A stretch of DNA of 64,000 nt from positions 8,585-72,584 of the forward strand of contig DASQCF010000009.1 of the NCBI GenBank assembly GCA_035634815.1. Reading direction: 5' to 3'. Below the pieces are notes generated by a model. It was not told where the DNA came from and ran no database searches. It saw nothing but the letters and a program-made list of their open reading frames with translations. Shown piece after piece: positions 26,899 to 45,851 of this stretch (position 1 is its first letter; every line of letters starts with the position of its first letter). The position numbers were made by a program, and so were the translations under genes. This DNA comes from Solirubrobacterales bacterium. GTDB lineage: Bacteria; Actinomycetota; Thermoleophilia; Solirubrobacterales; 70-9.

Positions 26899-26994
26899 GC
26901 GCCCGTAGCTCAGTGGTCAACGGGTCCTTTCGGGGGCCCAAAGAGCGTCGGTCTTTCAAGCCGAAGGTCGCGGGTTCGACTCCCGTCGGGCGCA
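26899..26994 (+). tRNA. tRNA-Glu(UUC)-like gene with a ~20-nt hairpin insertion in the D loop (96 nt; possibly non-canonical or a pseudogene)
   Basis: Hand-folded. Acceptor GCGCCCG/CGGGCGC + A. D stem GCTC/GAGC enclosing a 31-nt loop. Anticodon arm TCGGT-CTTTCAA-GCCGA. Variable region AGGTC. T arm GCGGG-TTCGACT-CCCGT. No encoded CCA. Confidence 0.6.
26948..26989 (+). repeat. attL-like direct repeat (tRNA anticodon loop to acceptor 3' strand)
   Basis: 38/42 identical to 37457..37498 in the same orientation. Exact blocks of 18 nt and 17 nt. Confidence 0.75.
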
Positions 26995-29663: not shown

Positions 29664-29941
29664 CCCCTCACGCACTATCGCCGGAGAGCCTCCGAACCTC
29701 CAACCTCGACCCCCGACACACTACGAACCCTCCGGATTCGTGCCTGAGCGGCCCGTTTCCGAGCCGCGGGCAAAACCTCCGCCGGGAGGAGCCGACCGCC
29801 CCTCCGGGCGGCCGATTTTGGCACGGCTTCGCCGTGCGGAGGCCGCCTGTAGGGAGGGGCGGTAGGGGTCTGACCTTCGGTCTCCTGAAGGCGCCGAAAT
29901 CTTGGCCGATGCAGATGACCCCCACCTTGGACAGTGGTGGC

Positions 29942-30136
29942 ATGGAGAGGAAATCCAGCAAGCCGAGTTTCTTCACCGAGCGCACCCTCGCCGACTTCCT
30001 CGCGGTCAGCGACCGGACCATCCGCAACTGGATCAGGCGCGGCGACCTGCCCAGCTACAAGCTCGGAGCGGCGAGGCGGATAGATCCCGCCGACGTCGAG
30101 GCCTTCCTTGCTCGGCACAGGGACGAGACGGCATGA
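29942..30136 (+). CDS. xis: Excisionase-family (MerR/HTH_17-like) DNA-binding protein
   Basis: FFTERTLADFLAVSDRTIRNWIRRGDLPSYKLG. Its stop overlaps the integrase ATG (ATGA). Start uncertain; alternatives at 29909 and 29915. Confidence 0.75.
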   Translation: MERKSSKPSFFTERTLADFLAVSDRTIRNWIRRGDLPSYKLGAARRIDPADVEAFLARHRDETA

Positions 30137-31224
30137 GGCGCGAGGCGCCGCTCAAACGGCGCAACCCCTCGGGCAAGATTGTGTGGGTCGCCCGTTATAC
30201 GGGCCGCGATGGCAAGTACCGCATCGCCAAGCCCACCTGGAACCGCGGCAAGGGCACCTTCACCAGGAAGGCCGATGCTCAGAGAGCTATCGACGAGGCC
30301 TACGGTCTCTCCGACCGACCCGACACCCTCGGCGACTATGCCGCCACCTGGACCGAGCGCCACCCACGCTCCGAACGGACCAATGCAACGAACGACCACC
30401 GCATCAGCCGTGTCGCCGACGTAGAGATCGAGGGCATCCCGCTGAAGGACTGGCCGCTGCGCGAGCTACGCCGCCGTCACACGCTGGCCCTGGTCGATCA
30501 CATGCTGAGGACCGAAGGTCGAACCACCACCGGAGCCGTCGGCATCCTCCGGGCTCTTTCAGCAATGGCCGAGGATGCGATCACCGACGAAGTCTGCGAC
30601 CTCAACCCCTTCAAGGGCATCCGCATCCGAGCCAACGACCCGCGAGCGAAGAAGAAGCCAAGACCGATCCGCGTCTTCACCTTCGAGGAGATGCACCGCT
30701 TCGCGAAAGCTGCCGGTCGCTACGAGGCAATGGTTCGCGTCTTCACCGACTGCGGCTTGAGGCTGGGGGAGGTGCTGCCCCTCCGCCCCGAAGATTTCGA
30801 CGGCGAAACGCTCCAGGTCCGCCGCACCGCCCACGAGGGACAGATTCTCGAGGGCACCAAGACCGACCACGGCGAGCCCGACGCCGGCCGCGTCGTTCCC
30901 GTCCCCGCAACCCTCGCCTGGATGCTAGAAGCCCAGATCAACCTCAACGGCCCCGACTGCCACCTCCTCTTCCCGACCCCGCGCGGTCGCCTCTGGCGCG
31001 AGCGCACCTTCTACCGCGACCTCTGGAAGCCCGCTCAAGAAGCTTCCGGCCTAGACATCCGCCCCCACGAGTGCCGCCACAGCTACGTCACGCACCTAAG
31101 AGCTGCTGGGGTGAACGACGCCGACTTGGCGGAAATCGCGGGCCATAGGGTCGAGACGATGCTGGCGCGGTATACGCACGCGTTGGGAAATAGCTTCGGT
31201 CAGGTTAGGGAGGTGATCGACTAG
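30133..31224 (+). CDS. int: Tyrosine-type site-specific integrase
   Basis: In-frame ATG at 30133. N-terminal SAM-like/arm-binding region. Catalytic LRLGEV (Arg), HECRHSYVTHL and GHRVETMLARYTH (R..HxxR..Y). Confidence 0.92.
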   Translation: MRREAPLKRRNPSGKIVWVARYTGRDGKYRIAKPTWNRGKGTFTRKADAQRAIDEAYGLSDRPDTLGDYAATWTERHPRSERTNATNDHRISRVADVEIEGIPLKDWPLRELRRRHTLALVDHMLRTEGRTTTGAVGILRALSAMAEDAITDEVCDLNPFKGIRIRANDPRAKKKPRPIRVFTFEEMHRFAKAAGRYEAMVRVFTDCGLRLGEVLPLRPEDFDGETLQVRRTAHEGQILEGTKTDHGEPDAGRVVPVPATLAWMLEAQINLNGPDCHLLFPTPRGRLWRERTFYRDLWKPAQEASGLDIRPHECRHSYVTHLRAAGVNDADLAEIAGHRVETMLARYTHALGNSFGQVREVID

Positions 31225-31423: not shown

Positions 31424-31801
31424 TTGGTTGATTTGGTTCCCAATCTGGCTGCGGCAGGTGGATCTACCGGCGCGACTGAAGCGCTTTCGTCGGCAGAAGC
31501 GCTTGCTGTCTCAATAACGATGGAGGGCCTGCTGTTCGCGGCATTCGCGGTTGGGAACAAGCTCACCGAGGCGACGGAGAAGGGTCGAAGCCCCTTCTAC
31601 ACGCAGGGTTGGTTCGGGTGGGGCATCGTCGTGGTGATCGCACTCGTAGCCGCCGGTGCCGCGGGGGCCTGGTGGGAACAGTTTGGCCATGATTGGCCAA
31701 CTAACTTTCGAGACCTACTTCTAGGGCTTGGACTGGCAATAGGAATCGTGAGCCAGCCAGCCTTTGCAGCCGTAATCAATTACGAGTCGAAGAGGACCTA
31801 G
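31424..31801 (+). CDS. Small integral membrane protein (about 3 TM), hypothetical
   Basis: TTG at 31424, with an alternative ATG at 31520. Hydrophobic segments GLLFAAFAV, WGIVVVIALVAAGAAGAWW and LLLGLGLAIGIV. The stop lies 2 nt before the next ATG. Confidence 0.55.
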   Translation: MVDLVPNLAAAGGSTGATEALSSAEALAVSITMEGLLFAAFAVGNKLTEATEKGRSPFYTQGWFGWGIVVVIALVAAGAAGAWWEQFGHDWPTNFRDLLLGLGLAIGIVSQPAFAAVINYESKRT

Positions 31802-31803
31802 TC

Positions 31804-33594
31804 ATGCCCACTTTCATGACCGCTGCGGAGAAGCAGAAGGCGAAAGATATGGGTGTCCCATCCTTCTTCAAAGGAAAGAGGTTCCGAAGCATTAGGGAGG
31901 AGCATCTATTCGCTGCCCTCGATGGTGCAGTGGCGGCGATGAAGGGACTTTCATCGCCAGATCCGTATAACGGTCGGATTCTTGGTGCCATGGCCGTGCA
32001 GCTGGTGATGAACGATCCGCGAGCTCTAGGTGACATCAGTAAGAGAAAGATCCTCTCTTTTTCGCAATCATCAGAAGAGGACCGGGCGCAGTTCTTCGAG
32101 TTGCTTGGCTTCGAAATCAGCGAACGGTACTTACAGGCACGAAAGGAGGAGATTCCAGAGGAGACTCTGTTTATGTCGTCTGAGTCACTCGTGGAGAAGT
32201 TGGGTGACATTTTTGAGGAAATGACGGAACTCGGTAAGCAGATGGGGAATGTTGTGGTGATGGCAGACGAGATCTCGCTGATCGTTGAAAATGATATGCC
32301 GGACGCTGTGAATATCGCTCAGGGCATTGTTGAAGGGGTCGTCGGGTCTTTCGAGAGCTTGGTGCCATCCGTTGACGCCAGTGGTGAGATCCCGAATCCT
32401 GTTCAGCGTCGGGCTGTTGCCAAAGCCGCCTTTCTTCGGCTTGGAGTAGAGGACTTGGTTCAGCTTGCCGCCGAAAGAGACATCACTAATCTTCCCAACA
32501 AGGCGGCACTTGCGAAAGCGCTCGCGGAGGCCTACCAAGATGATCTGGACGAGGTCGCACGGCTGACGGTCAGAGAAGCTGAAGGTGAGGCTGCTTTCGG
32601 ATTGGTATCTCGTCTCCTTCCCTTGTCGAAAGCCCCCGATCTTGCCGCTGCAAAGAAAGGGTTTGAGTCCCTCCGGGGGCATTACGTCGAGGTCAAGCCA
32701 GCGGTGTTCTTCGTCTACCGGGATGTTTCGCTTTCGCCAGATGGGGCGTTCTTAACGATCACTGGCGCAATGCGCTCCTTCCATGTCGCGCCAGTCGAAG
32801 TCATGGGAACGGTCCAGCTCAATCCAAAGCCGCGAAAAGATGACATCACCATCAAACTTCAGAATGACGAGAAGTGGGCAGTCGTGACGGCTCGGCGGGC
32901 ATCCGACCTAGCGTCGATAGGAGCGGTCTTACGGAGAAGTGGTGAGGTCTCAACGGCAGGCGCTGTGGCAGCGCCAGATCCTCTTGCGGATGCCCCATTC
33001 AATACTTGGGACCCACGGTCACTCTGGATTTTGGAATTGTTCCGCCGGAACTTTCAAGCCGACGCACTGACTCTCCAGGACACCCTAATGGCGAACTTTG
33101 ACTCCCCGAAAGGCTCTGACTTGGCAGACGAGGAGGGGGAAGGAGAGGGGATTCCACCAAGGCTGGCGTCCGTGAAACTCAAAGGGCAAAGACTTCACGA
33201 CCACCCGGAGGTGTGTAGCCGACTTGTGCAGCGGTCACATCTAAAGGACGTTGAATTCCGCCTTCGCAAAGTAACCGATCAAGAGAAGAACTTCTCGACT
33301 CTTACTCGTGTCCGACTTGCATGGGAACGTGACCACCTTGCGGTGATGACCGGGGACAGCGGGGCAACTTATGATCCAGACCTGCACCAGCTTCTTGTTC
33401 GCCTTGTTCGAGCTGCGGCCGAGCGCCCCCTTAGCACCGAGCTGATTCCAATTCTCAAGAATGTTCAGGCTAGGTCGAAAGAGACTGATGTCAAAGCTGG
33501 AGCAAAAGGCGTCCTTGATAACGGGTCGGCTGTTCCCCCTGAGCCGGAAGACGGGCAAATCACCGTCACTGCCGCAGGGGAGACGGCTTCCTAG
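31804..33594 (+). CDS. Hypothetical 596-aa protein, no domain recognised (possible SAP-like helix pair near residues 215-245)
   Basis: Long ORF with ordinary amino-acid composition in a ~50% G+C stretch. Coupled to the preceding membrane-protein gene. Confidence 0.75.
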   Translation: MPTFMTAAEKQKAKDMGVPSFFKGKRFRSIREEHLFAALDGAVAAMKGLSSPDPYNGRILGAMAVQLVMNDPRALGDISKRKILSFSQSSEEDRAQFFELLGFEISERYLQARKEEIPEETLFMSSESLVEKLGDIFEEMTELGKQMGNVVVMADEISLIVENDMPDAVNIAQGIVEGVVGSFESLVPSVDASGEIPNPVQRRAVAKAAFLRLGVEDLVQLAAERDITNLPNKAALAKALAEAYQDDLDEVARLTVREAEGEAAFGLVSRLLPLSKAPDLAAAKKGFESLRGHYVEVKPAVFFVYRDVSLSPDGAFLTITGAMRSFHVAPVEVMGTVQLNPKPRKDDITIKLQNDEKWAVVTARRASDLASIGAVLRRSGEVSTAGAVAAPDPLADAPFNTWDPRSLWILELFRRNFQADALTLQDTLMANFDSPKGSDLADEEGEGEGIPPRLASVKLKGQRLHDHPEVCSRLVQRSHLKDVEFRLRKVTDQEKNFSTLTRVRLAWERDHLAVMTGDSGATYDPDLHQLLVRLVRAAAERPLSTELIPILKNVQARSKETDVKAGAKGVLDNGSAVPPEPEDGQITVTAAGETAS

Positions 33595-33795: not shown

Positions 33796-34041
33796 ATGAC
33801 CACGAAGGAGCGACTTCACAAGCTGGTCGATGAGCTTTCTGACCAGGAGGCCGAGGCCGCGTTGGTGATTGTTGAGCGTCGGCGCGATGACCCGATGCTG
33901 CATGCGCTTGCGTCCGCTCCGCTTGATGACGAGCCCTCTGACGCCGATGAGGACGCTAGCGCGACTGAGGCGCTTGCCGCTCATATTCGGGGAGAGTCAA
34001 TTTCCTCGGAGCAGTTGCGCGCCGAACTCGATCTCGATTGA
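33796..34041 (+). CDS. Type II antitoxin (partner of the RelE/ParE toxin)
   Basis: 81 aa and acidic. 4-nt overlap with the downstream RelE/ParE gene. Confidence 0.7.
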   Translation: MTTKERLHKLVDELSDQEAEAALVIVERRRDDPMLHALASAPLDDEPSDADEDASATEALAAHIRGESISSEQLRAELDLD

Positions 34042-34298
34042 CCACCGGTTGGTCACTGCGTATTGCGCCACCGGCTCGGCGTGATCTGAAGCGACTTGAT
34101 CCACCGGTTCGGAGGCGGATTCTGGATGCCCTCGACAAGTTCGTGGCAGCGCCGCGCCAGGGGGACATTCGGAAACTCAACCCAGTCCAATGGCGTCTAC
34201 GGGTTGGCGACTGGCGCGTGCGCTTCAGCTTCGATGACGAGAATCAGGTGATCATCGTCTTGCGGGTGCTTCCACGCGGTCGAGCATACGATCGGTGA
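34038..34298 (+). CDS. RelE/ParE-family toxin
   Basis: LRIAPPARRDLKRLDPPVRRRI...WRLRVGDWRVRFSFDDENQVIIVLRVLPRGRAY. Confidence 0.85.
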   Translation: MTTGWSLRIAPPARRDLKRLDPPVRRRILDALDKFVAAPRQGDIRKLNPVQWRLRVGDWRVRFSFDDENQVIIVLRVLPRGRAYDR

Positions 34299-34404: not shown

Positions 34405-37374
34405 ATGGGAACTGCCGCGACAAATTCCGACCCAGGCGCGAGTCCTTCTCCGAGCAAAGGACAGCAACCTCAGATTCCGGCGGATCTCTTACAAGCCCCG
34501 GAATCCACGGTTCAGCCGCCCGCGGCGACGGCGCGCCAGTTGCTTCCGATAGCAGAACTCTCATGGCAAGATTTCGAGCGCTTATGTACGCAGATCGCGG
34601 TCGAAGAAGGAGATGCGGAGATTGTGAAGCGCTTCGGTTCTCCTGGGCAGGCGCAGAGTGGAATAGATATATACGCTCGAAAGAAGAACGGACGATACGT
34701 TGTTTACCAATGCCGCCAGCGAAAATCGCTGACGTCGCGGGACATCAAGGCGGCCGTGGAGGACTTCGCCAAAGGTGAGTGGGCTCCTCTCGCTGAAGAG
34801 TTTGTGATCTGCACTTCGGCCGATGGCTCCTCGGCTCAGGTGTTGAAAGAGCTTGAGAAGCAAGCTTCGGCAATGCGCACCGCGCATCCGGGGCTCTCTG
34901 TGAGGCTTGATGATCGGGCCGACCTATCCATGCGATTAAAGGGGTGTCCGGACCTTGTACTCGATTTCTTTGGGCCAGCCTGGGTTGATCAATTTCTAAA
35001 GAAGAGCTCGCAACAACCGTTGAGCCCAGAGATTGTGAGGAAGTTACCTCGTCTTAAGGACCTGTCATGGCGAGAGCTAGGAGTGCGACGTGCCGGGCGA
35101 GCGTGCGATGCAGATGGATGGACCCCAAAGTTGGAGCGCCCGGTCGATAGCAAGCTTCGCGCTTTGCTTCGCAGGGCGGTGAAGCCCGCGCAAGAAGAAC
35201 GAGACAGCATGAGGTTCATTGTCCTAATTGGAGAGCCGGGCACCGGGAAGTCTCGTGCCATGTTCGATGCGGTGACTGCCATCTGTCCTGAGGCTTGGAT
35301 TTACCGGCCGAATCATCACGATCCATCGAGTCTCGCCGCAGTGCTGGATCGCGGCGACCTAGCGCGGTTCGCGCCAGAGCCGCGGACTCCCCTTTTGATC
35401 TGGCTGGATGATTTGGAGTTATTCGTACCTCCTGATGAAACTGGACTGACTGCGGCTCGCATAAACACCCTTCGTTACTCGAATAGGCCTATCGTGGTAC
35501 TAGCCACTGCTGGCGGAAAGTCGGCAGACATCGCGCGCGCTCGACGGTCAGCTCCCGACGATAAGGGGACCGTATTATCCTTAGTTCTGGCAGAGCGTAC
35601 CGTTCAGGTGCGTGTGGCAGCAAAGGGCCTCACTACGGCGGTAATAGAGAAGGGGGTCGACGCAGGGGACTACCAGCGGGATGATGCTGCGGCAATCCGC
35701 GCTCACGGTGTTGGCCCCTTCGTCCTCGGAGCCGACCTGCTGTTCTTGAAGCTTCACACCGGCCGCTTCCCTCCGGAGGCGCCACCATCGAGCGCAGGCG
35801 TGGCTGTAACCAAAGCAGTGCTGGCCTGGAACGCATGCGGTATACCTAGGCCAATTGATCGGGAACGCTTGAAGAAGTTGTGGATGCATTACTTTCAAGG
35901 CGAGCCATCTGAGGTTGAATTTGAGGAAGGTCTTGCTTGGGCTCAAGAGCCTGTTATTGGTGACATGGCTTTACTTGAGCGAGAGGAGTTGCAGTACCGT
36001 TGTAACGATCTAGTTGTGGCAGCGAGTCGGCTTACCATGGAAAAAGGCGACTACCTTAGAGTTCTCAATGCTGCAGGCCCCTCGGAGGCTGCATGGATCC
36101 CATACGGGGGTGGAGGCTTTCAACCGCGGGTGGACGCGCTGAAGGAGTTCCTGCGTCAACACGAGCCTTTGGATGATGCATGGTGGCCATTTGAGGTAGC
36201 CATGGGTCATGTATGGCGAACGCTGAGTCAGCCGGAGCTTGCCCGAAAATCGTGGGAGAAAGGGCTTGCAGACGGCTGTTTTTGCGCGGCAGTGTCTATT
36301 TCGCGGATGAAATCTGATGAAGGCGATCTATCCGGTGCTGCTGAGGCTTTGCAGCGGCTTTTGGATGGGGGCTTCGGTGGAGTCGCGATCGAGGCGAGCA
36401 GTCTCTACACCCGAATGGGAGACCACAAGGGGTCGTTGGCCGCACTTGAATCTGGGGCGGAGGCTGGAGATGGGGAGAGTGCTTTCGTCCTTGGGCGTCG
36501 GCTTAGGCGGGTTGACGAGAAGCAGGCAGAGTGGGCCCTACGAAAGGCTCTGGAACTAGGCTTTGGAGGCGCGTGGAGTTCCTTGTGGTCTATCTACATG
36601 GGGCGGGAAGAGTACGCATCTGCAGAGAAGGTTGCGCTGCAAGGAGCCGACTTAGGTATAGGGGAAGCGGCATGTGTATTAGGTCTTTTGAGAGAGGAAC
36701 ATCTTCGGGACCAACAAGGTGCCATTGAGGCATACCGCCATGCCTGTGACCTTGAAGAGTTGATCGCCTATGCATTGCTCGGAAATCTCTATCGGAGCCG
36801 AGGCGAGGACGGGGACGATGAGCGCGCGATCGCTGCGTTCGAAACGGGGGCAACCCTTGGCTCGGCAGAGAGCAGTCACATGCTTGGCCACCATTTAGAA
36901 GATGGCGGAGATATCGATGGAGCAGCCAATGCCTTTGAGGAGGCCATAACGCTAGGGGGGCTACAACCCGTTGCCTGCTTAGGGAAGCTCAATAGCACGA
37001 GGAATCTCGTGTTGGCGCGAGAGCGAGCCCAATCTGCGGCAGAACGCCGATCAACGCCTTCGGTGCTCTTTTGGCTGGCCAGTGCTACGCAGGCAGTGGA
37101 TGGCATAGAGGCTGCGGACCCGATTTGGCAAGCAGTACTGGATACTCGCCATAGAGAGACCATCTATCGAGCGGGAGTGTACCGTCGCGATGAAGGCGAC
37201 TTTGAGGGTGCTGAGCGCATGTTGCTCGAGGCCGACGAGTTAGGGTTTCCCGCCGCCGCATGCGCCATCGGACACATGTGGGAGAAAAGGGGTCGAAAGG
37301 AGCTTGCCCGTGAAGCTGGCCGACGCGCGAGAGCCCTCGGGCACGAGTGCACGCTCGCAGAGGCCAGAAAGTAG
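34405..37374 (+). CDS. Mrr-like restriction-endonuclease domain + P-loop NTPase + Sel1/TPR-like repeat protein (STAND/Avs-like)
   Basis: WQDFERLC...SGIDIYARKKNGRYVVYQCRQ nuclease signature. Walker A LIGEPGTGKS and Walker B-like LLIWLDDLE. C-terminal degenerate Sel1-like repeats (ESAFVLGRRL, GEAACVLGLL, AESSHMLGHHLE, AAACAIGHMWE). Confidence 0.85.
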   Translation: MGTAATNSDPGASPSPSKGQQPQIPADLLQAPESTVQPPAATARQLLPIAELSWQDFERLCTQIAVEEGDAEIVKRFGSPGQAQSGIDIYARKKNGRYVVYQCRQRKSLTSRDIKAAVEDFAKGEWAPLAEEFVICTSADGSSAQVLKELEKQASAMRTAHPGLSVRLDDRADLSMRLKGCPDLVLDFFGPAWVDQFLKKSSQQPLSPEIVRKLPRLKDLSWRELGVRRAGRACDADGWTPKLERPVDSKLRALLRRAVKPAQEERDSMRFIVLIGEPGTGKSRAMFDAVTAICPEAWIYRPNHHDPSSLAAVLDRGDLARFAPEPRTPLLIWLDDLELFVPPDETGLTAARINTLRYSNRPIVVLATAGGKSADIARARRSAPDDKGTVLSLVLAERTVQVRVAAKGLTTAVIEKGVDAGDYQRDDAAAIRAHGVGPFVLGADLLFLKLHTGRFPPEAPPSSAGVAVTKAVLAWNACGIPRPIDRERLKKLWMHYFQGEPSEVEFEEGLAWAQEPVIGDMALLEREELQYRCNDLVVAASRLTMEKGDYLRVLNAAGPSEAAWIPYGGGGFQPRVDALKEFLRQHEPLDDAWWPFEVAMGHVWRTLSQPELARKSWEKGLADGCFCAAVSISRMKSDEGDLSGAAEALQRLLDGGFGGVAIEASSLYTRMGDHKGSLAALESGAEAGDGESAFVLGRRLRRVDEKQAEWALRKALELGFGGAWSSLWSIYMGREEYASAEKVALQGADLGIGEAACVLGLLREEHLRDQQGAIEAYRHACDLEELIAYALLGNLYRSRGEDGDDERAIAAFETGATLGSAESSHMLGHHLEDGGDIDGAANAFEEAITLGGLQPVACLGKLNSTRNLVLARERAQSAAERRSTPSVLFWLASATQAVDGIEAADPIWQAVLDTRHRETIYRAGVYRRDEGDFEGAERMLLEADELGFPAAACAIGHMWEKRGRKELAREAGRRARALGHECTLAEARK

Positions 37375-37456: not shown

Positions 37457-37498
37457 TCGTCCTTTCAAGCCGAAGGTCGGAGGTTCGACTCCCGTCGG
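37457..37498 (+). repeat. attR-like degenerate copy of the tRNA 3' half
   Basis: TCGTCCTTTCAAGCCGAAGGTCGGAGGTTCGACTCCCGTCGG is 38/42 identical to 26948..26989. It cannot form an intact T stem, and no tRNA 5' half lies upstream. Confidence 0.75.
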
Positions 37499-37517
37499 TT
37501 TTCCCCGAACGCGGCCC

Positions 37518-38996
37518 TCACGGTTCCACGAGTGCTTTTACCTCGGCGCGATTGGTGCGTGCTTCGCCGGACCAGCGGTGGGGGGTCCCTCCGATTTTCG
37601 CTTCGCAGGTGAGTAGGGAGGGGAGGCAGTGGACCGTTGCGACGATTCCGGCCTCGGTGCTGCGGAGGGCGAAACGCTCTTCATCCCCATTGGCGGTGCC
37701 GTCGGCTATCGGATACACGCCACCTGGCGTGACTGATGCGATCGCCTGCCACGGTCCCAGTAGGCCTGGCCCCGCGACGGTGTAGGCGACGTCACGGTCG
37801 GTGTATTGCCCGCACCCCGTCTTATTGTCGCCATCGCGAATCGGCCCGGCGGAGGCGTCGTCGCGGACCAGGACAAAGGAACCGTCGCGGCTGTCGATCA
37901 CGTAGGCGTCGCCGTCGCCACCCACACTGAAGCGGTCTTCGGCGGAGATCAGTTGCTTGTTGCGGATCATCGGCAAGGCGAATTCGGCTGCTTGTTCCAG
38001 TAGGTATACGGGGTGCTCCAAGCCATCGAAGGCGAGCGCGATGCCCCTCAACTGACCTTCGCAATAGCCAGGCACATACCACGAGTTGGACAGTCCGGGT
38101 ATCGGGCGCGCCCGCCCGGGGCAGCCGGCGATGTCGAAGCCCAGCGCCTCCATCGGCCCGGTTTCCAGGCCGTGCACTTCATGCCAGGCAAGGGCCAGCG
38201 CCTCCCGCTGGGGTTCGGGAACCCCGACCGGCAGGTACCGACTGCTGCAGTCTTCACTCACCGGCCGGGTGTGATGCACGTTGCCTCCGCCTTTGGATTC
38301 GTCTGGTGGTTCCGGCGCCACGGTGCTTCCGACGGCGCCCGCGACCGCGATCAGGCTGATCGCAAAGGTCGAGCACCAGAGAGCCCAGCTTGTATGGCTG
38401 AGGTTGCCGTCCTCGGTGTCCCGACCGTTGAGCCTCTCCCGAAGCGCGTCGACGGTGTCGTCCTTGGCTTGAGCCAGCCGGTTGTCGAGCTCGACCCATA
38501 TGAACGAGCCGCGGATTACATCGGTGGCGCGCGGGGCCCGGTAGCCGGTCTTCTCTTTCAAGGCTTCGCGGTCAATCTCCATCTGGGTCGCCGACCAGAA
38601 CAGGAGCCCAGTACTGAGCAGCCAGATCCCAGCGAGCATGTAGAGCTTTGGGTCCGGGTGGAGGTCAAGGACACCGACGCCGCAGGTCCAGACCACGAGG
38701 AGGGCGAATTCGAACCAGGTCGCGCGCGCGAGGCCGATCGAGAAGTAGCGCTCGTAGAGGTGCAGGCAGTGGTGGCAGAGGAGCAGCGCCCAGCCGAGTT
38801 GGTAGGCGATGGTGAGCAGATGCGAGAGCCCTTCCCAGCCGCCTGACCGCAGGGCGGAGCCGCAGAGGACGAGTGCCGACGACCCGATCGTCGCCGCCGT
38901 CTTGCGGCCGATCGGAACCTTGGAAACGTCTCCTTGAAGCCACGCCTTCATCCCCATCTCCCCCTCTGTCTCTCGGTTGACTGGCGAGTCAGCCAA
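37518..38996 (-). CDS. Multi-pass membrane protein with a large C-terminal soluble domain, hypothetical
   Basis: 492 aa. About five hydrophobic segments in the first 250 aa, then a Cys-containing soluble region. Intermediate G+C. Confidence 0.65.
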   Translation of the reverse strand: MADSPVNRETEGEMGMKAWLQGDVSKVPIGRKTAATIGSSALVLCGSALRSGGWEGLSHLLTIAYQLGWALLLCHHCLHLYERYFSIGLARATWFEFALLVVWTCGVGVLDLHPDPKLYMLAGIWLLSTGLLFWSATQMEIDREALKEKTGYRAPRATDVIRGSFIWVELDNRLAQAKDDTVDALRERLNGRDTEDGNLSHTSWALWCSTFAISLIAVAGAVGSTVAPEPPDESKGGGNVHHTRPVSEDCSSRYLPVGVPEPQREALALAWHEVHGLETGPMEALGFDIAGCPGRARPIPGLSNSWYVPGYCEGQLRGIALAFDGLEHPVYLLEQAAEFALPMIRNKQLISAEDRFSVGGDGDAYVIDSRDGSFVLVRDDASAGPIRDGDNKTGCGQYTDRDVAYTVAGPGLLGPWQAIASVTPGGVYPIADGTANGDEERFALRSTEAGIVATVHCLPSLLTCEAKIGGTPHRWSGEARTNRAEVKALVEP

Positions 38997-39056
38997 ACCG
39001 ATCCTCTAGCGCCCCAAAGGCGGTTGTAAAGACCCGTTCCTCATTAGGTACGAGCC

Positions 39057-40559
39057 GTGCGTGAAGCAACCGGTTCCAATACGGTGGTCCACCTCGACGA
39101 TGCACCGAACTGGGGGAGGCAGAGCGTGAGAAGGGCAGAGCGGATTCATCAGGTGATCGCGGCGGTTTCGAAAGAGGGGCCGCTGCCTTTCCCCGAGCTC
39201 GTCGACCGCCTGCCCGACATTCAGGACAAAGACCATCTGCGAAAAGAAATCGTCGCCGACGCTGCTGCGGCGGAAATCCTGATGGCCGCGACGGGTAAGC
39301 ATTGGGATCTGCCGAAGGCACTAACGGCGGCGAACGGGAATAGGACCCACTATGTGGGCGTGGGTCGTGAGGTTGGCTGCGTACTGGGAATCAGCGTCGG
39401 TCGGACCTACTTCGCGCTCGGCGTCGCCGACTCCAACGGCCGCCTGATCTCACAGCACGATCGGAAGGCGCTGAAGGAGGAAGGGGCGAAGGCGGCTGAC
39501 GCCCAGGCCCAATACGTGCAGGGGCAGATCGTCACCTATGCGCGGAACGAGGATGTCGTCGGTGAGGCGCTGCTGAGCGAGATAGCGGCCGCCGCGAAGC
39601 AGTGGATGAAAGAGGTGGACGTCGAGCCGCGCGAGATCCGTGGTGTGACGATCGGCCTCCCTGTGCCGGTCAGCACGACCCGGAGCAAGGTCCTCACCAA
39701 GTCGCTCGAAATCCCCCTCTCCAGCGTTCCCCACATCGCTTCGAGCTTCGAAGAGGAGCTCGGCGAGGACTTCACCAGCCTCCAGAAAGTGATCGTGTCC
39801 AACGATGCCGACATCGCCGCGCGCGCCGAGGTCCGCTACGGCGAGGCTTACGGGATGAAGGACGTCGTCGTCCTCCATGCCGCCTACGGAATCGGCGCCG
39901 GTGTCCTCGCCGAGGGCAAGGTTCTGCGGACCACCGCAGGCGGGGGGATCGGTGAGGTGGGTCACTGCATGCCGATGATCCGCCGCGACGATGGCCAGCG
40001 GTTCGGTCTGCTTCCACTGTCGGTCGAGCATCCTGTCTACAAGTGCGCATGTGGACAGCTGGGGCACCTGGAGGCGCTCGCCGGCGGCAGCGCGATCATC
40101 GGGCGGATCAAGCACTCCCCCGGGATCGACCCGGCGCCACCCGATGACGTGGCCAAGCTCCTCAAGGACGAGAAAGCCAACGACGCTGACGTGCTCGGGG
40201 CGATCCTCGACGCCTCTTTCGGCAGCCCGGCTTGGGAACCGGGTCGCGCCGCGGTGTTAGATGCCGCCCGACTGATCGGCTGCAGCATCCACACCCTCAC
40301 CCTCGTCTTCCGTCCGGAAGCCGTCTACCTGGGCGGCAAGCTGAGCGAGGCCGGCAACTCCTTCCTCAAAGAGGTCAAAGCCTCCTTCACCAAATGCGGC
40401 CCACTGACCGGCTACGAACCGAAGATCGCCCTGGGCACCGCCGGCAGCCAGTTCGGGCGACGCCACGTAATGGTCCGGGGGGCGGCAATGACTGCGGTGC
40501 GGGGGACCGAGAGCTTGGTCGACGTCAAGGAAATCGCTGAGAAGCTGGCGGCCGTTTAG
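39057..40559 (+). CDS. ROK-family protein (N-terminal winged-helix-like region + ASKHA sugar-kinase fold)
   Basis: GTG start. LGISVGRTYFALGVAD phosphate-1 motif. GIGAGVLAEGKVLRTTAGGGIGEVGHC. Zn motif CACGQLGHLEA. Confidence 0.85.
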   Translation: MREATGSNTVVHLDDAPNWGRQSVRRAERIHQVIAAVSKEGPLPFPELVDRLPDIQDKDHLRKEIVADAAAAEILMAATGKHWDLPKALTAANGNRTHYVGVGREVGCVLGISVGRTYFALGVADSNGRLISQHDRKALKEEGAKAADAQAQYVQGQIVTYARNEDVVGEALLSEIAAAAKQWMKEVDVEPREIRGVTIGLPVPVSTTRSKVLTKSLEIPLSSVPHIASSFEEELGEDFTSLQKVIVSNDADIAARAEVRYGEAYGMKDVVVLHAAYGIGAGVLAEGKVLRTTAGGGIGEVGHCMPMIRRDDGQRFGLLPLSVEHPVYKCACGQLGHLEALAGGSAIIGRIKHSPGIDPAPPDDVAKLLKDEKANDADVLGAILDASFGSPAWEPGRAAVLDAARLIGCSIHTLTLVFRPEAVYLGGKLSEAGNSFLKEVKASFTKCGPLTGYEPKIALGTAGSQFGRRHVMVRGAAMTAVRGTESLVDVKEIAEKLAAV

Positions 40560-40572
40560 GAGGGCTGCTCAT

Positions 40573-41274
40573 ATGCCGAGAGACGCGCTGAGGAAATCGC
40601 ATGTTGGGATCCAGCTGAACGACCGTTCGGCCAAGATGGAGCGCCGGCTGGGGGTTGCGCTGGGGGAGATGGAGGAGGCGATCCAGGCTGACTTTGGGCT
40701 GACGGCGGTGGTCGAGAAGAGGATGATGCTGTCGACGATCGTTGATGCGATGAACGCGCATTACGGCGCTCAGGCTCCGGTTTCGTTCGAGCCGGCCTAT
40801 CGCGGTGGTGACACCTGGCTGCAGCCCGATGGGGGTTTTTGGACCATCGAGGAGTGGGACGACCCCTCGCGAGTGATTCTTGTCGCCGAGGTGAAGCGGC
40901 AGGGAACCAATGACGCTCGGGCGCGGGAAGGGAAGGAGAAACAGTCGCGGGGCAATGCGATCGAGCGCCTGGGGAAGAACATGCGGGGGATCGACGCGCT
41001 CTTCTCCGGCGAGCGGATAACGCCGTTCGTCTGCTTCGGCGAGGGGTGCGATTTCGGCGAGGACAGCTCCATCCGCGACCGGGTGGCGACCCTGAACGGG
41101 TTCTTCCCCCTCAACGAGATCTTCGTCGACAAGGTCGCGGTGGGGGATGACACGCTGAAGCCGACCTCCATGTACTTTCGCGAAGAACCCTGGACGCCGG
41201 CTGAGATGGCAGAGGTGCTGATCCCGGTGGCGCGGCGGTCGATCGAGTACTACCGGGAGAAATACAAACTCTAG
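40573..41274 (+). CDS. EcoRI-family type II restriction endonuclease-like protein
   Basis: Collinear with recalled EcoRI motifs. LQPDGGFW...VILVAEVKRQG matches IKPDGGIV...VVLVAEAKHQG. GNAIERLGKNMRGI matches GNAIERSHKNISEI. PFVCFGEGCDF matches PYVLFLEGSNF. Catalytic D and E-x-K are retained. AGGAGGG ribosome-binding site lies 9 nt upstream. Confidence 0.8.
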   Translation: MPRDALRKSHVGIQLNDRSAKMERRLGVALGEMEEAIQADFGLTAVVEKRMMLSTIVDAMNAHYGAQAPVSFEPAYRGGDTWLQPDGGFWTIEEWDDPSRVILVAEVKRQGTNDARAREGKEKQSRGNAIERLGKNMRGIDALFSGERITPFVCFGEGCDFGEDSSIRDRVATLNGFFPLNEIFVDKVAVGDDTLKPTSMYFREEPWTPAEMAEVLIPVARRSIEYYREKYKL

Positions 41275-41945
41275 GCGGCCCCCTCGCCGTATTCGTCGTG
41301 CCGGTTCCACCAGCTGTAGGGCTTGTCCTGCGGGTAGCCCTCGGGTGAGTCCTCCCAGGTCTCCTGCCGCCCGAGGGGGGTGACGTCGAGGTAGTTCCAG
41401 GTGCTGCCCATCTGCTCGTCGCCCCGCGCGTCGACGAAGTAGGTGCGGAAGATCGCGCCACCCTCGCGGAGGAAGACGTTGGTTCCGTGCCATTCGTCGA
41501 CGTCGAAGTCGGCGTCGAAGCTGTCGGTGAGCGTGTACCAGGGCATCTCCCAGCCCATCCGCTCCTTCAGGCGCGCGATCTCCGCCTGCGGGGCGCGGGA
41601 GACGAAGGCCAGCGTCGTGTCGCGGGCGTTGAGGTGGGCGAGGTGGGCGCCCTGATCGGCGACCATCGAGCAGCCGGGGCAGCCCTTCTCGGGAAAGCCC
41701 TTCACGTCCGGGTCGAAGAAGAAGCGGTAGACGATCAGCTGGCGGCGCCCGGCGAAGAGGTCCTCCAGGTCGACCGGGCCCGACGGGCCCTCGAAGCGGT
41801 ACTCGCGCTCGACGGCCATCCGCGGCATCTGCCGCCGTTCGGCCGCCAGCGCGTCGCGGGCGCGGGTCAGCTCCTTCTCCTTGACCAGCATCTCCTCGCG
41901 GGCAGACCTCCACTCCTGCGGCGAGACCACGGGCGGCAAATCCAT
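41271..41945 (-). CDS. DUF899 thioredoxin-like protein
   Basis: VVSPQEWRSAREEMLVKEKELTRARDALAAERR...GCPGCSMVADQ. Confidence 0.85.
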   Translation of the reverse strand: MDLPPVVSPQEWRSAREEMLVKEKELTRARDALAAERRQMPRMAVEREYRFEGPSGPVDLEDLFAGRRQLIVYRFFFDPDVKGFPEKGCPGCSMVADQGAHLAHLNARDTTLAFVSRAPQAEIARLKERMGWEMPWYTLTDSFDADFDVDEWHGTNVFLREGGAIFRTYFVDARGDEQMGSTWNYLDVTPLGRQETWEDSPEGYPQDKPYSWWNRHDEYGEGAA

Positions 41946-42016
41946 CGAGTCCTCCTTCGGTTGGTCATCGACATCCTCCCTTCGACTACCCGCCTGGCGC
42001 CAGCTAAGGTGGCCCG

Positions 42017-43204
42017 ATGGCCAAGGCGAGGGTGCAGCGGCGCGGCAGCGGAGCCCGTTCCGGGGGGGATGCGCGAGCCCGGGTGGCGGCGCAGATGCGC
42101 GAGCGGCTGCCGGAGATCCAGGCGGCGGTGGCGACCCGGGTGTACGCGATCGCCGACCCGCACGAGGTAACCGACCCTGCCTACGTGGAGGGGCTGAAAG
42201 CCGCCCTGGCCGCCGCGGTCGAGTACCGGCTCGCGGTCCTGGAGCTCGGCGAGCGGCGGGCGCCCGCCGTGCCCGAGGTGCTGCTGGCGCAGGCGCGCCT
42301 CGACGCCCGCGACGGGGTGGCGCTGGAGACCGTGCTGCGCCGCTACTTCGCCGGCAACACCCACTTCGGCGACTTCTTGGCCGAAGAGGCCGAACGGGCC
42401 GAGATGCCGAGCGCGACCCTGCGCTCGCTGCTGCGCGAGCAGGCGACGCTCGGCGACCGGCTGCTCGCCGCGATCAGCGCCGAACACGCGCGTGAGGCGG
42501 CGAACCGGCCGAGCGGCAACGCCGAGGAGCGGCGGCGGGAGATCGTCAAGAGCCTGCTCGCCGGCGAGCTCGTCGACCACTCCGAGATCGAGTACGACTT
42601 CGACGGCCACCACCTGGCGCTGATGGCCAAAGGCGAGGGGGCCGAGGGGCCGATGCGGGAGCTGGCGAGCCGCCTCGACCGCCGGCTGCTGATCGTCCAG
42701 CGCGAGGAAGAGGCGAAGTGGGCCTGCTGGCTCGGCGGGCGGCGCGAGCTCGACCCCGCGGAGGCGCTGCGGGCGCTACGTGAGCTCGACCCCAAGGGCG
42801 TCTTCGTCACGCTCGGGGAGCCCGCGGAGGCGCTCGCCGGCTGGCGCTTCAGCCACCTGCAGGCGAAGGCGGCGCTGGCGATCGCCGAACGGCGGCGCGA
42901 GCCGTTCCTGCGCTACGCCGACGTCGCCGTCCTCGCCGCGGTCCTCCGTGACGACCTCGTCGCCGACTCGCTGCGGCGCATCTACCTGGAGCCGCTGGCG
43001 CGCTCGCGCGACAACGGCGAGGTCGCGCGGGAGACGCTGCGCGCCTGGTTCGCGGCCGAGCGGAACATCTCCTCGACCGCCGCCGCGCTCGGCGTCGACC
43101 GCCGCACCGTGCGCAACCGCTTGGGCGCGATCGAGGGCCTGCTCGGCCGGCCGCTGCGCGGCTCGCTGGCCGACCTCGAGATCGCCCTGCGGCTCGAGGG
43201 CTAA
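42017..43204 (+). CDS. PucR-family transcriptional regulator
   Basis: C-terminal PucR HTH (ETLRAWFAAERNISSTAAALGVDRRTVRNRL). Confidence 0.8.
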   Translation: MAKARVQRRGSGARSGGDARARVAAQMRERLPEIQAAVATRVYAIADPHEVTDPAYVEGLKAALAAAVEYRLAVLELGERRAPAVPEVLLAQARLDARDGVALETVLRRYFAGNTHFGDFLAEEAERAEMPSATLRSLLREQATLGDRLLAAISAEHAREAANRPSGNAEERRREIVKSLLAGELVDHSEIEYDFDGHHLALMAKGEGAEGPMRELASRLDRRLLIVQREEEAKWACWLGGRRELDPAEALRALRELDPKGVFVTLGEPAEALAGWRFSHLQAKAALAIAERRREPFLRYADVAVLAAVLRDDLVADSLRRIYLEPLARSRDNGEVARETLRAWFAAERNISSTAAALGVDRRTVRNRLGAIEGLLGRPLRGSLADLEIALRLEG

Positions 43205-43302
43205 CCGCCTCACCCCTCGCCTTTCCCACATTGGTGCACCGGCGCCGTGCGAGGCTCCAAATCGGGGAGGCGGCGGGGACGCCCCGGGCGGAGGATCGGG
43301 GC

Positions 43303-44082
43303 ATGAACCGGAAACCGATCCTCCTCCTCGCGCTCCTCGCCCTCGCCGCCCTGATCCTCTCCGCAGTCGCCTCCGGCAGCTCCAACCGCAGGCTCTGGTG
43401 TGTCGACAACCTCTGCGTCGCCGACGACGGCGGCATCTCCCCGACCAAGCTGCCGCGCCACGGGAAAGCGCCGATCACCGCGGCGCTGAAAGGGGAAGTG
43501 ACGACCAAAGACGGGACCCATCCGCCCCCGGTGCAGAGCCTCGACATCGAAATCGACAAGACGATCGGCGTCGACGCCGTCGGCCTGCCGACCTGCAGGA
43601 TCGGCCAGCTCGAGTCGCGCGACACCGCGACGGCGAAGAAGGCCTGCGGCGACGCGATCGTCGGCTCCGGCTCCGCCGAAGTCGAGGTCGCCTTCCCCGA
43701 ACAGGCGCCGTTCCGCTCGACCGGACCGCTGGTCCTCTTCAACGCCGGCGCCAAGGGGAAGACGACGACCGTCCTCCTCCACGCCTACGTCAACGTGCCG
43801 GCGCCGACCGCGATCGTCGTCCAGGCCACGATCACCCGGGTCCACCACGGGCGCTTCGGCCTGGAGATCGAGGCGGCCATCCCGCGGATCGCCGGCGGCT
43901 CGGGCTCGGTCACCAACTTCGAACTCAAGGTCGGCCGCAAGTACGCCTACAAGGGCCGCAAGAAGAGCTTCCTCACCGCCAGCTGCCCCACGGGCACCTG
44001 GCTCACCCGCGGCCACGTCCGCTTCGGCGACGACACCGAGCTCTCCATCCTCCACCCGTTCAGCTGCACGCCGCAGGGCTAG
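43303..44082 (+). CDS. Secreted hypothetical protein
   Basis: ORF trimmed to the ATG at 43303 (MNRKPILLLALLALAALILSAVASG signal peptide). Confidence 0.6.
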   Translation: MNRKPILLLALLALAALILSAVASGSSNRRLWCVDNLCVADDGGISPTKLPRHGKAPITAALKGEVTTKDGTHPPPVQSLDIEIDKTIGVDAVGLPTCRIGQLESRDTATAKKACGDAIVGSGSAEVEVAFPEQAPFRSTGPLVLFNAGAKGKTTTVLLHAYVNVPAPTAIVVQATITRVHHGRFGLEIEAAIPRIAGGSGSVTNFELKVGRKYAYKGRKKSFLTASCPTGTWLTRGHVRFGDDTELSILHPFSCTPQG

Positions 44083-44145
44083 CGCCCTTCGTCTCTCCGG
44101 GGCGAGCCGGCCGGTTTCTTCCCCGAGGGACCGGCCGACTGGGCC

Positions 44146-44400
44146 CTACCCGCGCAGCCGGTCGGCCCGGCTGGTCATCTCGCCGACGCTGGTGCCCAGC
44201 GCGCCGGCCAGGCGCAGCAGGGTCGTGTAGCTGGGGTTGCGCACGCCGCGCTCGACGCCGCCGACCTGGGTGAGGTCGGTGCCGGCGGCTTCGGCCAGTT
44301 GCTCCTGGCTCATCTCCGCCTCCAGGCGCAGCTGGCGGACCGCCTCGCCGAGGGCAGCGTGCTCGGGGGAGCGGGGTTTGCTGCGACGCGGGGGCGGCAT
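44146..44400 (-). CDS. XRE-family HTH regulator
   Basis: LRLEAEMSQEQLAEAAGTDLTQVGGVERGVRNPS. Confidence 0.8.
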   Translation of the reverse strand: MPPPRRSKPRSPEHAALGEAVRQLRLEAEMSQEQLAEAAGTDLTQVGGVERGVRNPSYTTLLRLAGALGTSVGEMTSRADRLRG

Positions 44401-44504
44401 CGCCCCGGAGCCTCTCTATTAAAAGACTCCAGTGTTAGGGTATTTATGCCATAACATCTGGAGCGCCGGAAACGGGTTGAGCTTTTGACTTTTCCGGGTC
44501 GCTC

Positions 44505-44813
44505 ATGCCGCCTTCTTCTTCAGAGCTGATCAGCGCCGTCGGCCATCCCTTGCGCCGGCGGATCCTGCTTGCCTACCTCGACCGCCCGCTGGAGCGTGCC
44601 TCGGCGAGCGAGCTGGCGGAAATCATGGATCAGCGCATCGGGCAGGTTGCCTACCACCTGAAGACGCTGGCGAAGAGCGAGATCCTGCGGCCGGTCGAGG
44701 GTGGCGATGGGACCGAAGCGAAGCAGGGTCACTACCGCTGGGCCCTCGACGTCGAGGCGGTCTGGCTGCGGCTGGTGCTCGAGGTCTGGGCGGAGGCCGA
44801 CCGCACGCCTTAG
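44505..44813 (+). CDS. ArsR-like winged-helix regulator
   Basis: HPLRRRILLAYL...ASELAEIMDQRIGQVAYHLKTLAKSEIL. Confidence 0.75.
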   Translation: MPPSSSELISAVGHPLRRRILLAYLDRPLERASASELAEIMDQRIGQVAYHLKTLAKSEILRPVEGGDGTEAKQGHYRWALDVEAVWLRLVLEVWAEADRTP

Positions 44814-44840
44814 CTCTGAGGCCGACCTAGACTGGGAGGG

Positions 44841-45851
44841 ATGCCGCCGCTGCTCGAGCGCCTGGGGGTGGAGCTGCCCGTCGTCCAGGCGGGGATGGGC
44901 GGTGGGATCAGCCGGCACGAGCTGGCCGCGGCTGTCTCCGAGGCCGGCGGCCTGGGGACGATCGCCGTCAGCGGGGCGGCGGCGATCCGCAGCGAGCTGG
45001 CGGCGGCGCGGGCGCTCACCGGGCGCCCGCTCGCGGTCAACGTGCTGCTGCCGTTTGCGCGGCGGGACTGGTTCGAGGCGGCCGGCGAGGCCGACGTCGT
45101 CGTCACCTTTTGGGGCAGGCCGCGGCGCCGGACCCCGGGGGTCTGGCTGCACCAATGTGGCTCGGTTGCGGAGGCGCAGCAGGCGCAGGCCGCGGGCGCC
45201 GACGGCGTCATTGTCCAGGGCGTCGAGGCTGGTGGGCACCTGCGTGGGACCGCCCCGGCGATGCGCCTGTTCGAGGAGGTGCGCGCGGCGCTGCCCGCGG
45301 ACTACCCGCTGCTGCTCGCCGGCGGTGTCGCTGAGCCTGGCGACGTACGGGCGGCGCTCGATGCAGGCGCCTGCGCCGCGGTCGCCGGCACCCGCTTCCT
45401 GCTCAGCGAGGAGAGCCGCGCCCACGCTCTTTATAAGGAGCGACTGCTCGCCGCGGAGCGGACGCTCCTCACCGACCTCTTCGGCGCCGCCTGGCCGGCG
45501 CCGCACCGCGTCGTCCCAAACGCCGCCACGGAGCGATGGCTGGGCGGCGTTCGTCCTTTGTTAGCCAGAGGACGAACAAAGGACGAACGCCGGGTACTGA
45601 ACCGCGCCCCGGCCGCTAATCGCGCCCTGAACCACTTCCTCGCGCCGGGCGCTCGCTACACGCCGGCGTCGCTGCAAGTGCGGATGATCCGGGCGCAGCG
45701 GCCCGGGAGCCGCCTGCTCACTCCTGCGGGGCCGACCGACGACGGGCCGCCGACGCTGGTCGATGCCGGCGCGCTCTACGCAGGAGAGACGGTCGCCCGG
45801 ATCGACACGGTGAGACCCGCAGCCGAGCTGGTCCGCGAGCTCGCCGGCTGA
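44841..45851 (+). CDS. Nitronate monooxygenase (NMO/2-nitropropane dioxygenase family)
   Basis: VVQAGMGGGIS and GADGVIVQGVEAGGH motifs. Confidence 0.85.
   Translation: MPPLLERLGVELPVVQAGMGGGISRHELAAAVSEAGGLGTIAVSGAAAIRSELAAARALTGRPLAVNVLLPFARRDWFEAAGEADVVVTFWGRPRRRTPGVWLHQCGSVAEAQQAQAAGADGVIVQGVEAGGHLRGTAPAMRLFEEVRAALPADYPLLLAGGVAEPGDVRAALDAGACAAVAGTRFLLSEESRAHALYKERLLAAERTLLTDLFGAAWPAPHRVVPNAATERWLGGVRPLLARGRTKDERRVLNRAPAANRALNHFLAPGARYTPASLQVRMIRAQRPGSRLLTPAGPTDDGPPTLVDAGALYAGETVARIDTVRPAAELVRELAG
45545..45592. repeat. 48-nt perfect palindromic element lying in frame inside the NMO CDS
   Basis: 18-bp perfect arms (CGGCGTTCGTCCTTTGTT / AACAAAGGACGAACGCCG) with a 12-nt loop. AT-richer than its context. 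48 nt equals 16 codons. Confidence 0.7.

Follow-up and report, generated by a model that had tools for sequence, protein, structure and literature searches.

A solitary EcoRI-family restriction endonuclease gene joined to a ROK-family gene in a Solirubrobacterales genomic island

The DNA analysed here is a stretch of 64,000 nucleotides (nt) from a Solirubrobacterales bacterium (assembly GCA_035634815.1, contig DASQCF010000009.1, positions 8,585 to 72,584 of the forward strand), hereafter called the window. Its central element is a gene for an EcoRI-like nuclease of 233 amino acids (aa), which is preceded on the same strand by a gene for a 500-aa ROK-family protein; the latter is divergent from a gene for a 492-aa membrane protein, and on its other side the nuclease gene faces a convergent DUF899 gene (Table 1). 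As a solitary type II restriction gene, the nuclease gene belongs to an already annotated family, and its adjacency to the ROK gene is an accident of island assembly.

The nuclease belongs to the EcoRI family by all the features examined: the profile match, the fold, the catalytic residues, and the recognition motif. It matches the Pfam EcoRI profile PF02963 with 44.1 bits (threshold 22) over residues 82–162, the match spanning profile positions 71–159 only, and it is scored at 48 bits by the PADLOC model REase_II; NCBIfam contains no model matching it. A phmmer comparison with the EcoRI chains of the PDB aligns residues 81–164 (E-value 5e-6) and brings the PDGG, VLVAE-x-K-x-QG, and GNAIER motifs into register with EcoRI, the loop before GNAIER being 8 residues shorter in the window protein. 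The residues D86, E106, and K108, invariant across the nuclease family, align to the catalytic residues D91, E111, and K113 of EcoRI, and the GNAIER motif (residues 127–132), also conserved in the family, is identical to EcoRI residues 140–145. The AlphaFold2 (AF2) model, based on an alignment of 29 homologues, has a predicted local distance difference test score (pLDDT) of 86.9 and a predicted template modelling score (pTM) of 0.83; when it is searched against the PDB by Foldseek, EcoRI chains are the sole significant matches (E below 0.001), the best with an E-value of 2e-12, a TM score of 0.70–0.72, and 229–250 aligned columns that correspond to the whole chain. The first-pass annotation, made from the letters of the window, had recognised an EcoRI-like protein with the catalytic Asp and the E-x-K motif, and this identification is upheld by the Pfam score, the EcoRI alignment, and the fold; a loss of catalytic residues, one of the outcomes it had named as contrary to its proposal, is excluded, since D/E/K and the 46 family-conserved positions described below are intact.

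At E ≤ 1e-3 the nuclease family counts 1114 proteins and is found at 408 genomic loci in many phyla, with the strongest conservation around PDGG, E-x-K-x-QGTN, and GNAIERLGKN; its existing members are labelled in RefSeq as "EcoRI family type II restriction endonuclease", and no homologue was retrieved from the phage collection that was searched. The window nuclease may cleave GAATTC or another site with an AATT core, which is its putative specificity.

The usual companion of these nucleases is a DNA methyltransferase. In the 80 best genome loci of the family, to which the counts of partner and ROK genes given here refer, tblastn locates a methyltransferase gene directly adjoining the nuclease gene in 79, and the same adjacency is seen in metagenome relatives whose nucleases are 40–73% identical to that of the window. 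The partner gene encodes about 385–450 aa with YIGNKR and DPPYNQHPYGSNY motifs, is assigned to Pfam MethyltransfD12, that is, to the N6-adenine DNA methyltransferases, and lies upstream in the same orientation or downstream in the convergent one; a sequence search of the PDB with the partner gave no match. All the closest relatives in which the two genes are still linked (L001–L004, L087, L093–L100, and L102; 52–73% identity) have the convergent downstream arrangement, and in the window that position is occupied by DUF899.

The linked cognate methyltransferase that defines a complete type II restriction-modification system was not found in the 64-kb window, as the first-pass annotation had also reported. 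Four of the family's partner methyltransferases, used as tblastn queries against the window, reached a best E-value of only 0.15, no (D/N/S/T)PP(Y/F/W/H) motif in a plausible coding frame and no C5-methyltransferase motifs were detected in it, and the Pfam tables of matching contigs list no methyltransferase between about 26 and 52 kb. Beside the nuclease gene there is likewise no gene for a small helix-turn-helix controller (C-protein), the sole upstream gene being that of the 500-aa ROK protein. A protein-database search with the partner methyltransferase of L102, the closest available, yielded at least 3995 homologues; their identity did not exceed 73%, and none could be attributed to the genome of the window.

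The absence of the methyltransferase extends to the nearest relatives of the nuclease, since the partner is missing from the nuclease loci above about 77% identity to the window. In L081, whose nuclease is 87% identical, there is no methyltransferase within ±8 kb, and the nuclease-DUF899-PucR synteny is common with the window, with a HEPN gene upstream in place of ROK; the 85% identical nucleases of L084, L085, and L092 stand in a different context again, also without a methyltransferase. The homology between the window and L081 is unbroken from 40565 to 45544 and, because this continuity and the nuclease-DUF899-PucR synteny are common to both, the loss of the methyltransferase predates their split. 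On these comparisons the orphan clade is composed of the window lineage together with L081 and L084. Within it, the ratio of nonsynonymous to synonymous substitution rates (dN/dS) of the nuclease is 0.15–0.20, measured over dS values of 0.35–0.95 (dN 0.070 and dS 0.352 for the window-L081 pair), in the same range as that of the flanking core genes. Forty-six sites are conserved at 95% or more in 89 methyltransferase-linked relatives; the window nuclease retains all of them, and no clade-specific substitution falls on any family-conserved position, GNAIER included.

A useful contrast to this intact clade is offered by methyltransferase-less copies that are decaying elsewhere in the family: those of L103 (1652–1996) and L104 (84–428) are truncated and carry GNGIER and, through a Glu-to-Gly change at the catalytic position, LVAGAK, while that of L101 (5519–6220) reads PDGDF and GNAIGR. 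Because of the purifying selection and the preserved motifs, set against the visible decay of these other orphans, the window nuclease looks functional rather than a pseudogene, and the nucleases of its clade are probably still functional. The window gene is very probably the intact orphan of a nuclease-methyltransferase pair.

The junction with the ROK gene carries the traces of a recombination. The ROK stop codon TAG (40557–40559) is separated from the nuclease gene by a spacer of 13 nt, and the sequence AGGAGGG (40558–40564), read in the first-pass annotation as a ribosome-binding site, overlaps this stop codon and ends 8 nt before the nuclease ATG. In blastn comparisons, positions 37517–40563 of the window match the ROK locus L088, and positions 40565–45544 match the nuclease locus L081, which has no ROK gene; the homology partner therefore changes within the 13-nt spacer. 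Close ROK homologues run 3–6 codons further (...AAV-PEDDWQ*) where the window reads TAG. On the nuclease side, a TGGCAnnnT element is found 7–9 nt before the nuclease ATG in actinobacterial relatives (L081, L084, L086, L093, L095, L004, L094, and L096), and its resemblance to an extended -10 element suggests a leaderless or short-leader nuclease transcript; in L091, the 97% variant, as in the window itself, the 3' end of the ROK gene takes its place. The spacers of these two copies already differ, reading TAGGAGGGCTGCTCAT in the window and TAATAGGTTCCTGAA in L091. A scan of 38800–41500 for consensus promoters and terminators detected no promoter and no meaningful terminator.

The ROK-nuclease pair is seen only in copies 97–100% identical to the window, and it was not found in the 80 nuclease loci, in the 87% and 85% nuclease relatives, or in six ROK loci. 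The two genes are almost certainly not a conserved module. Their combination had been put forward in the first-pass annotation as a possible new kind of regulated nuclease or defence module, to be judged by co-occurrence of the pair in other genomes; since the pairing is confined to the window lineage and the breakpoints lie in the spacer, that proposal fails its own test.

The ROK-family assignment itself is confirmed by Pfam (79 bits, threshold 22.9, residues 110–446). Homologues begin at residue 24 of the window protein, so the start codon is probably located at 39084–39126. The protein belongs to a small, distinct subfamily in which some 43 full-length homologues reach at least 44% identity, followed by a gap down to generic ROK proteins at 30%. 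The AF2 model (pLDDT 86.4; Foldseek E-value 2e-20) aligns over 460–488 columns with the repressors Lmo0178 (operator-bound), Mlc, and MecR2, against about 375 columns with ROK kinases, and on the basis of this difference the N-terminal domain may correspond to the DNA-binding domain of the repressors; no Pfam helix-turn-helix was detected in the first 120 aa. The metal-binding consensus of ROK proteins is GH...CxCGxxGCxE. The subfamily has GH...CxCGxxGHLE, in which H303, C330, C332, and GHLE (336–339) are invariant and a His replaces the third Cys. PADLOC and NCBIfam give no support for the ROK protein as a defence protein.

Six other ROK loci were compared (L088, L089, L090, L116, L117, and L118; ROK proteins 62–87% identical). 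In each of the six, a membrane-protein gene of about 480 aa is divergent from the ROK gene, with 55–82% aa identity, and the nuclease, DUF899, and methyltransferase genes are all absent; since all six carry this pair and none the nuclease, the conserved unit consists of the membrane protein and ROK. Its organization resembles, by analogy, the classic layout of a repressor with a divergent target, the regulatory link being putative. The cassette occurs in very different surroundings, and several of its loci look mobile or defence-related, with SMC_N/AAA_21 ATPases, PIN-RHH, a transposase, or DUF4007. A tblastn search of the 80 nuclease loci with the ROK protein found no adjacent homologue. L038 alone among these loci has any ROK-like sequence close to its nuclease-methyltransferase pair, a generic ROK gene (9702–10466, minus strand; 26% identity) situated 1 kb downstream on the opposite strand, which is most likely a coincidence.

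As regards the putative recognition site, GAATTC occurs seven times in the window, at the positions given by the first-pass annotation (10397, 10752, 33253, 37980, 38706, 51943, and 53143), against 11.25 ± 3.3 expected from dinucleotide shuffles and 5.3 from a Markov model; it is neither avoided nor enriched, in agreement with the lack of avoidance noted at that time. The sites at 37980 and 38706 are indeed inside a neighbouring gene, that of the 492-aa membrane protein. A Markov model of palindrome avoidance was also applied to the window, to the four closest linked loci, and to 1.07 Mb of sequence from relatives' loci. In the relatives' loci AATT is mildly under-represented (z -8.5), a deficit seen in most 4-mer palindromes, and GAATTC has a z of -0.8; palindrome avoidance did not point to a recognition site.

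The ROK cassette and the nuclease gene form the distal end of a region of atypical composition. The G+C content (GC), 0.70–0.75 outside, drops to 0.54–0.66 between about 27000 and 41270, and the G+C content at third codon positions (GC3) is 0.79–0.83 in the 492-aa gene, the ROK gene, and the nuclease gene, compared with 0.93–0.97 in core genes such as DUF899. The DUF899 gene overlaps the nuclease gene by 4 nt and has a GC3 of 0.96 versus 0.83 for the nuclease. The region begins at a tRNA gene whose 3' half (26953–26989) is repeated at 35 of 37 positions beyond the 989-aa gene, a match that was obtained in none of 100 shuffles; the two copies are likely the attL and attR sites of an integrative element of 10.5 kb, and the start of the ROK cassette follows the second by 20 nt. 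The order is tRNA, integrative element, ROK cassette, nuclease, and core genome, and the region is a mosaic assembled by successive insertions. In L081 no attachment-site (att)-like repeat of its tRNA was found.

Table 1. Position, strand, and supporting evidence of the features described in the window.
Feature	Position	Strand	Evidence and remarks
Solitary EcoRI-family type II restriction endonuclease gene	40573-41274	+	233 aa; Pfam PF02963, EcoRI PDB alignment, AF2/Foldseek
Recombination junction: ROK stop TAG, AGGAGGG, spacer	40557-40572	+	blastn breakpoints, junction alignments
ROK-family repressor-type gene	39057-40559	+	500 aa; Pfam ROK, AF2 model, homologue comparison
Membrane protein gene, divergent from ROK	37518-38996	-	492 aa; no Pfam match; conserved in ROK loci
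DUF899 gene, first core-genome gene	41271-41945	-	Pfam DUF899 277 bits; L081 synteny
tRNA gene, proximal att repeat, start of low-GC island	26899-26994	+	ARAGORN; Rfam tRNA 65.6 bits; GC profile
Tyrosine integrase of integrative element	29902-31224	+	Pfam Phage_integrase 59.6 bits
ParE toxin	34038-34298	+	Pfam 46 bits
989-aa protein	34405-37374	+	sub-threshold Mrr_cat (N-terminus), AAA_16/STAND NTPase, C-terminal TPR; faint PADLOC Avs2
Likely distal att site, repeat of tRNA 3' half	37462-37498	+	37 nt, 35/37 identical to 26953-26989

Besides its integrase, the 10.5-kb element carries a Dyp peroxidase. The integrase gene is followed by open reading frames (ORFs) of 93 and 596 aa (31520–33594, plus strand) with no Pfam match, located in the stretch of lowest GC (0.54–0.58); an 81-aa ORF (33796–34041, plus strand), also with no Pfam match, overlaps the start of the ParE gene and presumably encodes the ParE antitoxin. 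From its domain matches, the 989-aa protein may serve the element in defence, as an Avs-like protein of the nuclease-STAND type. The tRNA (1204–1299 in L081) is unusually long, 96 nt. An extra 7-bp hairpin, whose tetraloop is UUCG in the window and UACG in L081, stands between the D arm and a second arm, the loop of which is CUUUCAA; the ARAGORN assignment is Pro(GGG), while the second arm reads as an anticodon loop of the Glu(UUC) type, and in the T-stem both sides have changed between the window and L081 with the pairs kept.

The explanation preferred here, with a probability of roughly 0.6, is that of a stranded functional EcoRI-type nuclease expressed by read-through from ROK and from a new ribosome-binding site, with the methyltransferase elsewhere. 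The gene is a solitary member of a widespread two-gene family composed of an EcoRI-fold nuclease and a D12-class N6-adenine methyltransferase; the methyltransferase gene has been lost in the window clade, with the nuclease left abutting the core gene DUF899, and an independent cassette of membrane protein and ROK was joined to the nuclease inside the 13-nt spacer, in the window lineage only. This join removed the last 3–6 ROK codons and the -10-like element before the nuclease ATG, and the nuclease would now depend on read-through from the ROK promoter for its transcription and on the newly gained AGGAGGG for its translation. The enzyme would still be active and the host DNA would be protected by an unlinked methyltransferase of matching specificity, a source of protection that is slightly favoured over others. 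Some observations weigh against this explanation: no methyltransferase was found in a search limited to 64 kb of the genome; separation of nuclease and methyltransferase seems rare in the family, affecting at most 1 of the 80 loci; the nuclease gene of L086 (77% identity) is followed by 85 nt of sequence, too short to judge whether it is an orphan; and AATT occurs 32 times in the window versus 19.9 expected, so that, with neither AATT nor the seven GAATTC sites avoided, an active enzyme with an AATT-core specificity would need host protection.

Among the alternatives, a dedicated two-gene module of ROK and nuclease, acting as a ligand-regulated nuclease or as a new defence system with ROK in place of the methyltransferase or controller, could draw on the common strand, the short spacer, and the overlap of the ROK stop codon with a strong ribosome-binding site, on the surrounding low-GC island with its Mrr/STAND protein, ParE toxin, and integrase, and on the persistence of the pair in the 97% variant. 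It is nevertheless highly improbable, given the restriction of the pair to nearly identical copies, the HEPN gene upstream of the 87% nuclease relative, the six ROK relatives without a nuclease and the 80 family loci without an adjacent ROK, the position of the breakpoints with the shortened ROK C-terminus and the lost native upstream element of the nuclease, and the lack of a PADLOC match for ROK. A ROK-controlled defence system would have been new; the evidence does not support that reading.

The remaining alternatives concern the fate of the nuclease itself. It could be a silent or inactive relic, untranscribed or subtly inactivated and decaying after the loss of the methyltransferase, as happens to other orphans of the family and as the missing nearby methyltransferase and the unavoided sites would allow; full-length solitary restriction genes with no detectable activity are in fact described in the literature (PMC3488263). 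This is unlikely in view of the low dN/dS of the orphan clade, which includes the window-L081 pair with its shared methyltransferase-less junction, of the 46 conserved positions all kept, of the -10-like element preserved in the orphans L081, L084, and L086, and of the strong ribosome-binding site gained in the window. Quite unlikely is a domesticated clade, that is, an active nuclease with no need of a cognate methyltransferase thanks to a changed or rare specificity, a dependence on some feature of foreign DNA, or tight host control: purifying selection without a linked methyltransferase in at least three contexts would fit it, as would the restriction of homology between contexts to the nuclease gene and about 20 nt upstream, and a change of function has been proposed for some conserved solitary restriction enzymes (PMC3488263), but the clade has no specific change at conserved positions, GNAIER included, its fold and motifs match an orthodox enzyme of the EcoRI type, and no positive evidence for a new role was obtained. 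The fuller version, in which the window/L081/L084 clade is a domesticated EcoRI-fold nuclease active without a methyltransferase and its expression is captured by host regulators, here through ROK read-through, is distinctly doubtful; if true, the clade would represent a chromosomal nuclease under conditional expression instead of a restriction enzyme.

With respect to known systems, the window nuclease shares with R.EcoRI (PDB 1ERI, 1CKQ) the fold over the whole chain and the aligned catalytic D/E/K and GNAIER; it differs in its identity of 21–23%, its length of 233 aa versus 277 aa, and the shorter loop before GNAIER, and its family pairs with a D12-class methyltransferase, M.EcoRI being a methyltransferase of a different type. 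The nuclease of the Paracoccus marcusii plasmid pCP157_17 (6 kb) is a member of the same family, 41% identical over 97% of the query, and follows the family norm in the canonical two-gene arrangement of a nuclease and a "DNA adenine methylase"; in contrast, the methyltransferase is missing from the window, where a ROK gene is joined upstream of the nuclease gene. The ROK protein recalls the repressors Mlc, NagC, and Lmo0178 in combining the ROK domain with an N-terminal domain, in the metal motif, and in the divergent target-like gene, but the proteins of its subfamily have about 480 aa with insertions and, in place of a sugar gene, the neighbour encodes an uncharacterised membrane protein.

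A further parallel is with the solitary restriction endonucleases (Ershova et al. 2012, PMC3488263), which are likewise full-length, unlinked, and orthologous to members of complete systems, and for which the same candidate explanations apply: the methyltransferase may be distant, the gene silenced, or its function changed. Of the 272 solitary restriction genes analysed in that work, distant methyltransferases were predicted for 57, another 99 were fragments, and no explanation was given for the remainder. The phenomenon is already documented, and the locus described here adds a clean natural case in which a type II restriction gene has survived the loss of its linked methyltransferase, evolves under constraint, and has its rearrangement breakpoints mapped exactly. 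It is a possible test case for the cellular tolerance of solitary restriction enzymes, the specialist question being how an apparently intact nuclease of the AATT-core type is tolerated with 32 AATT and 7 GAATTC sites in the surrounding 64 kb. What distinguishes it from the solitary enzymes of that survey is that the orphan state is common to a small clade under measurable purifying selection.

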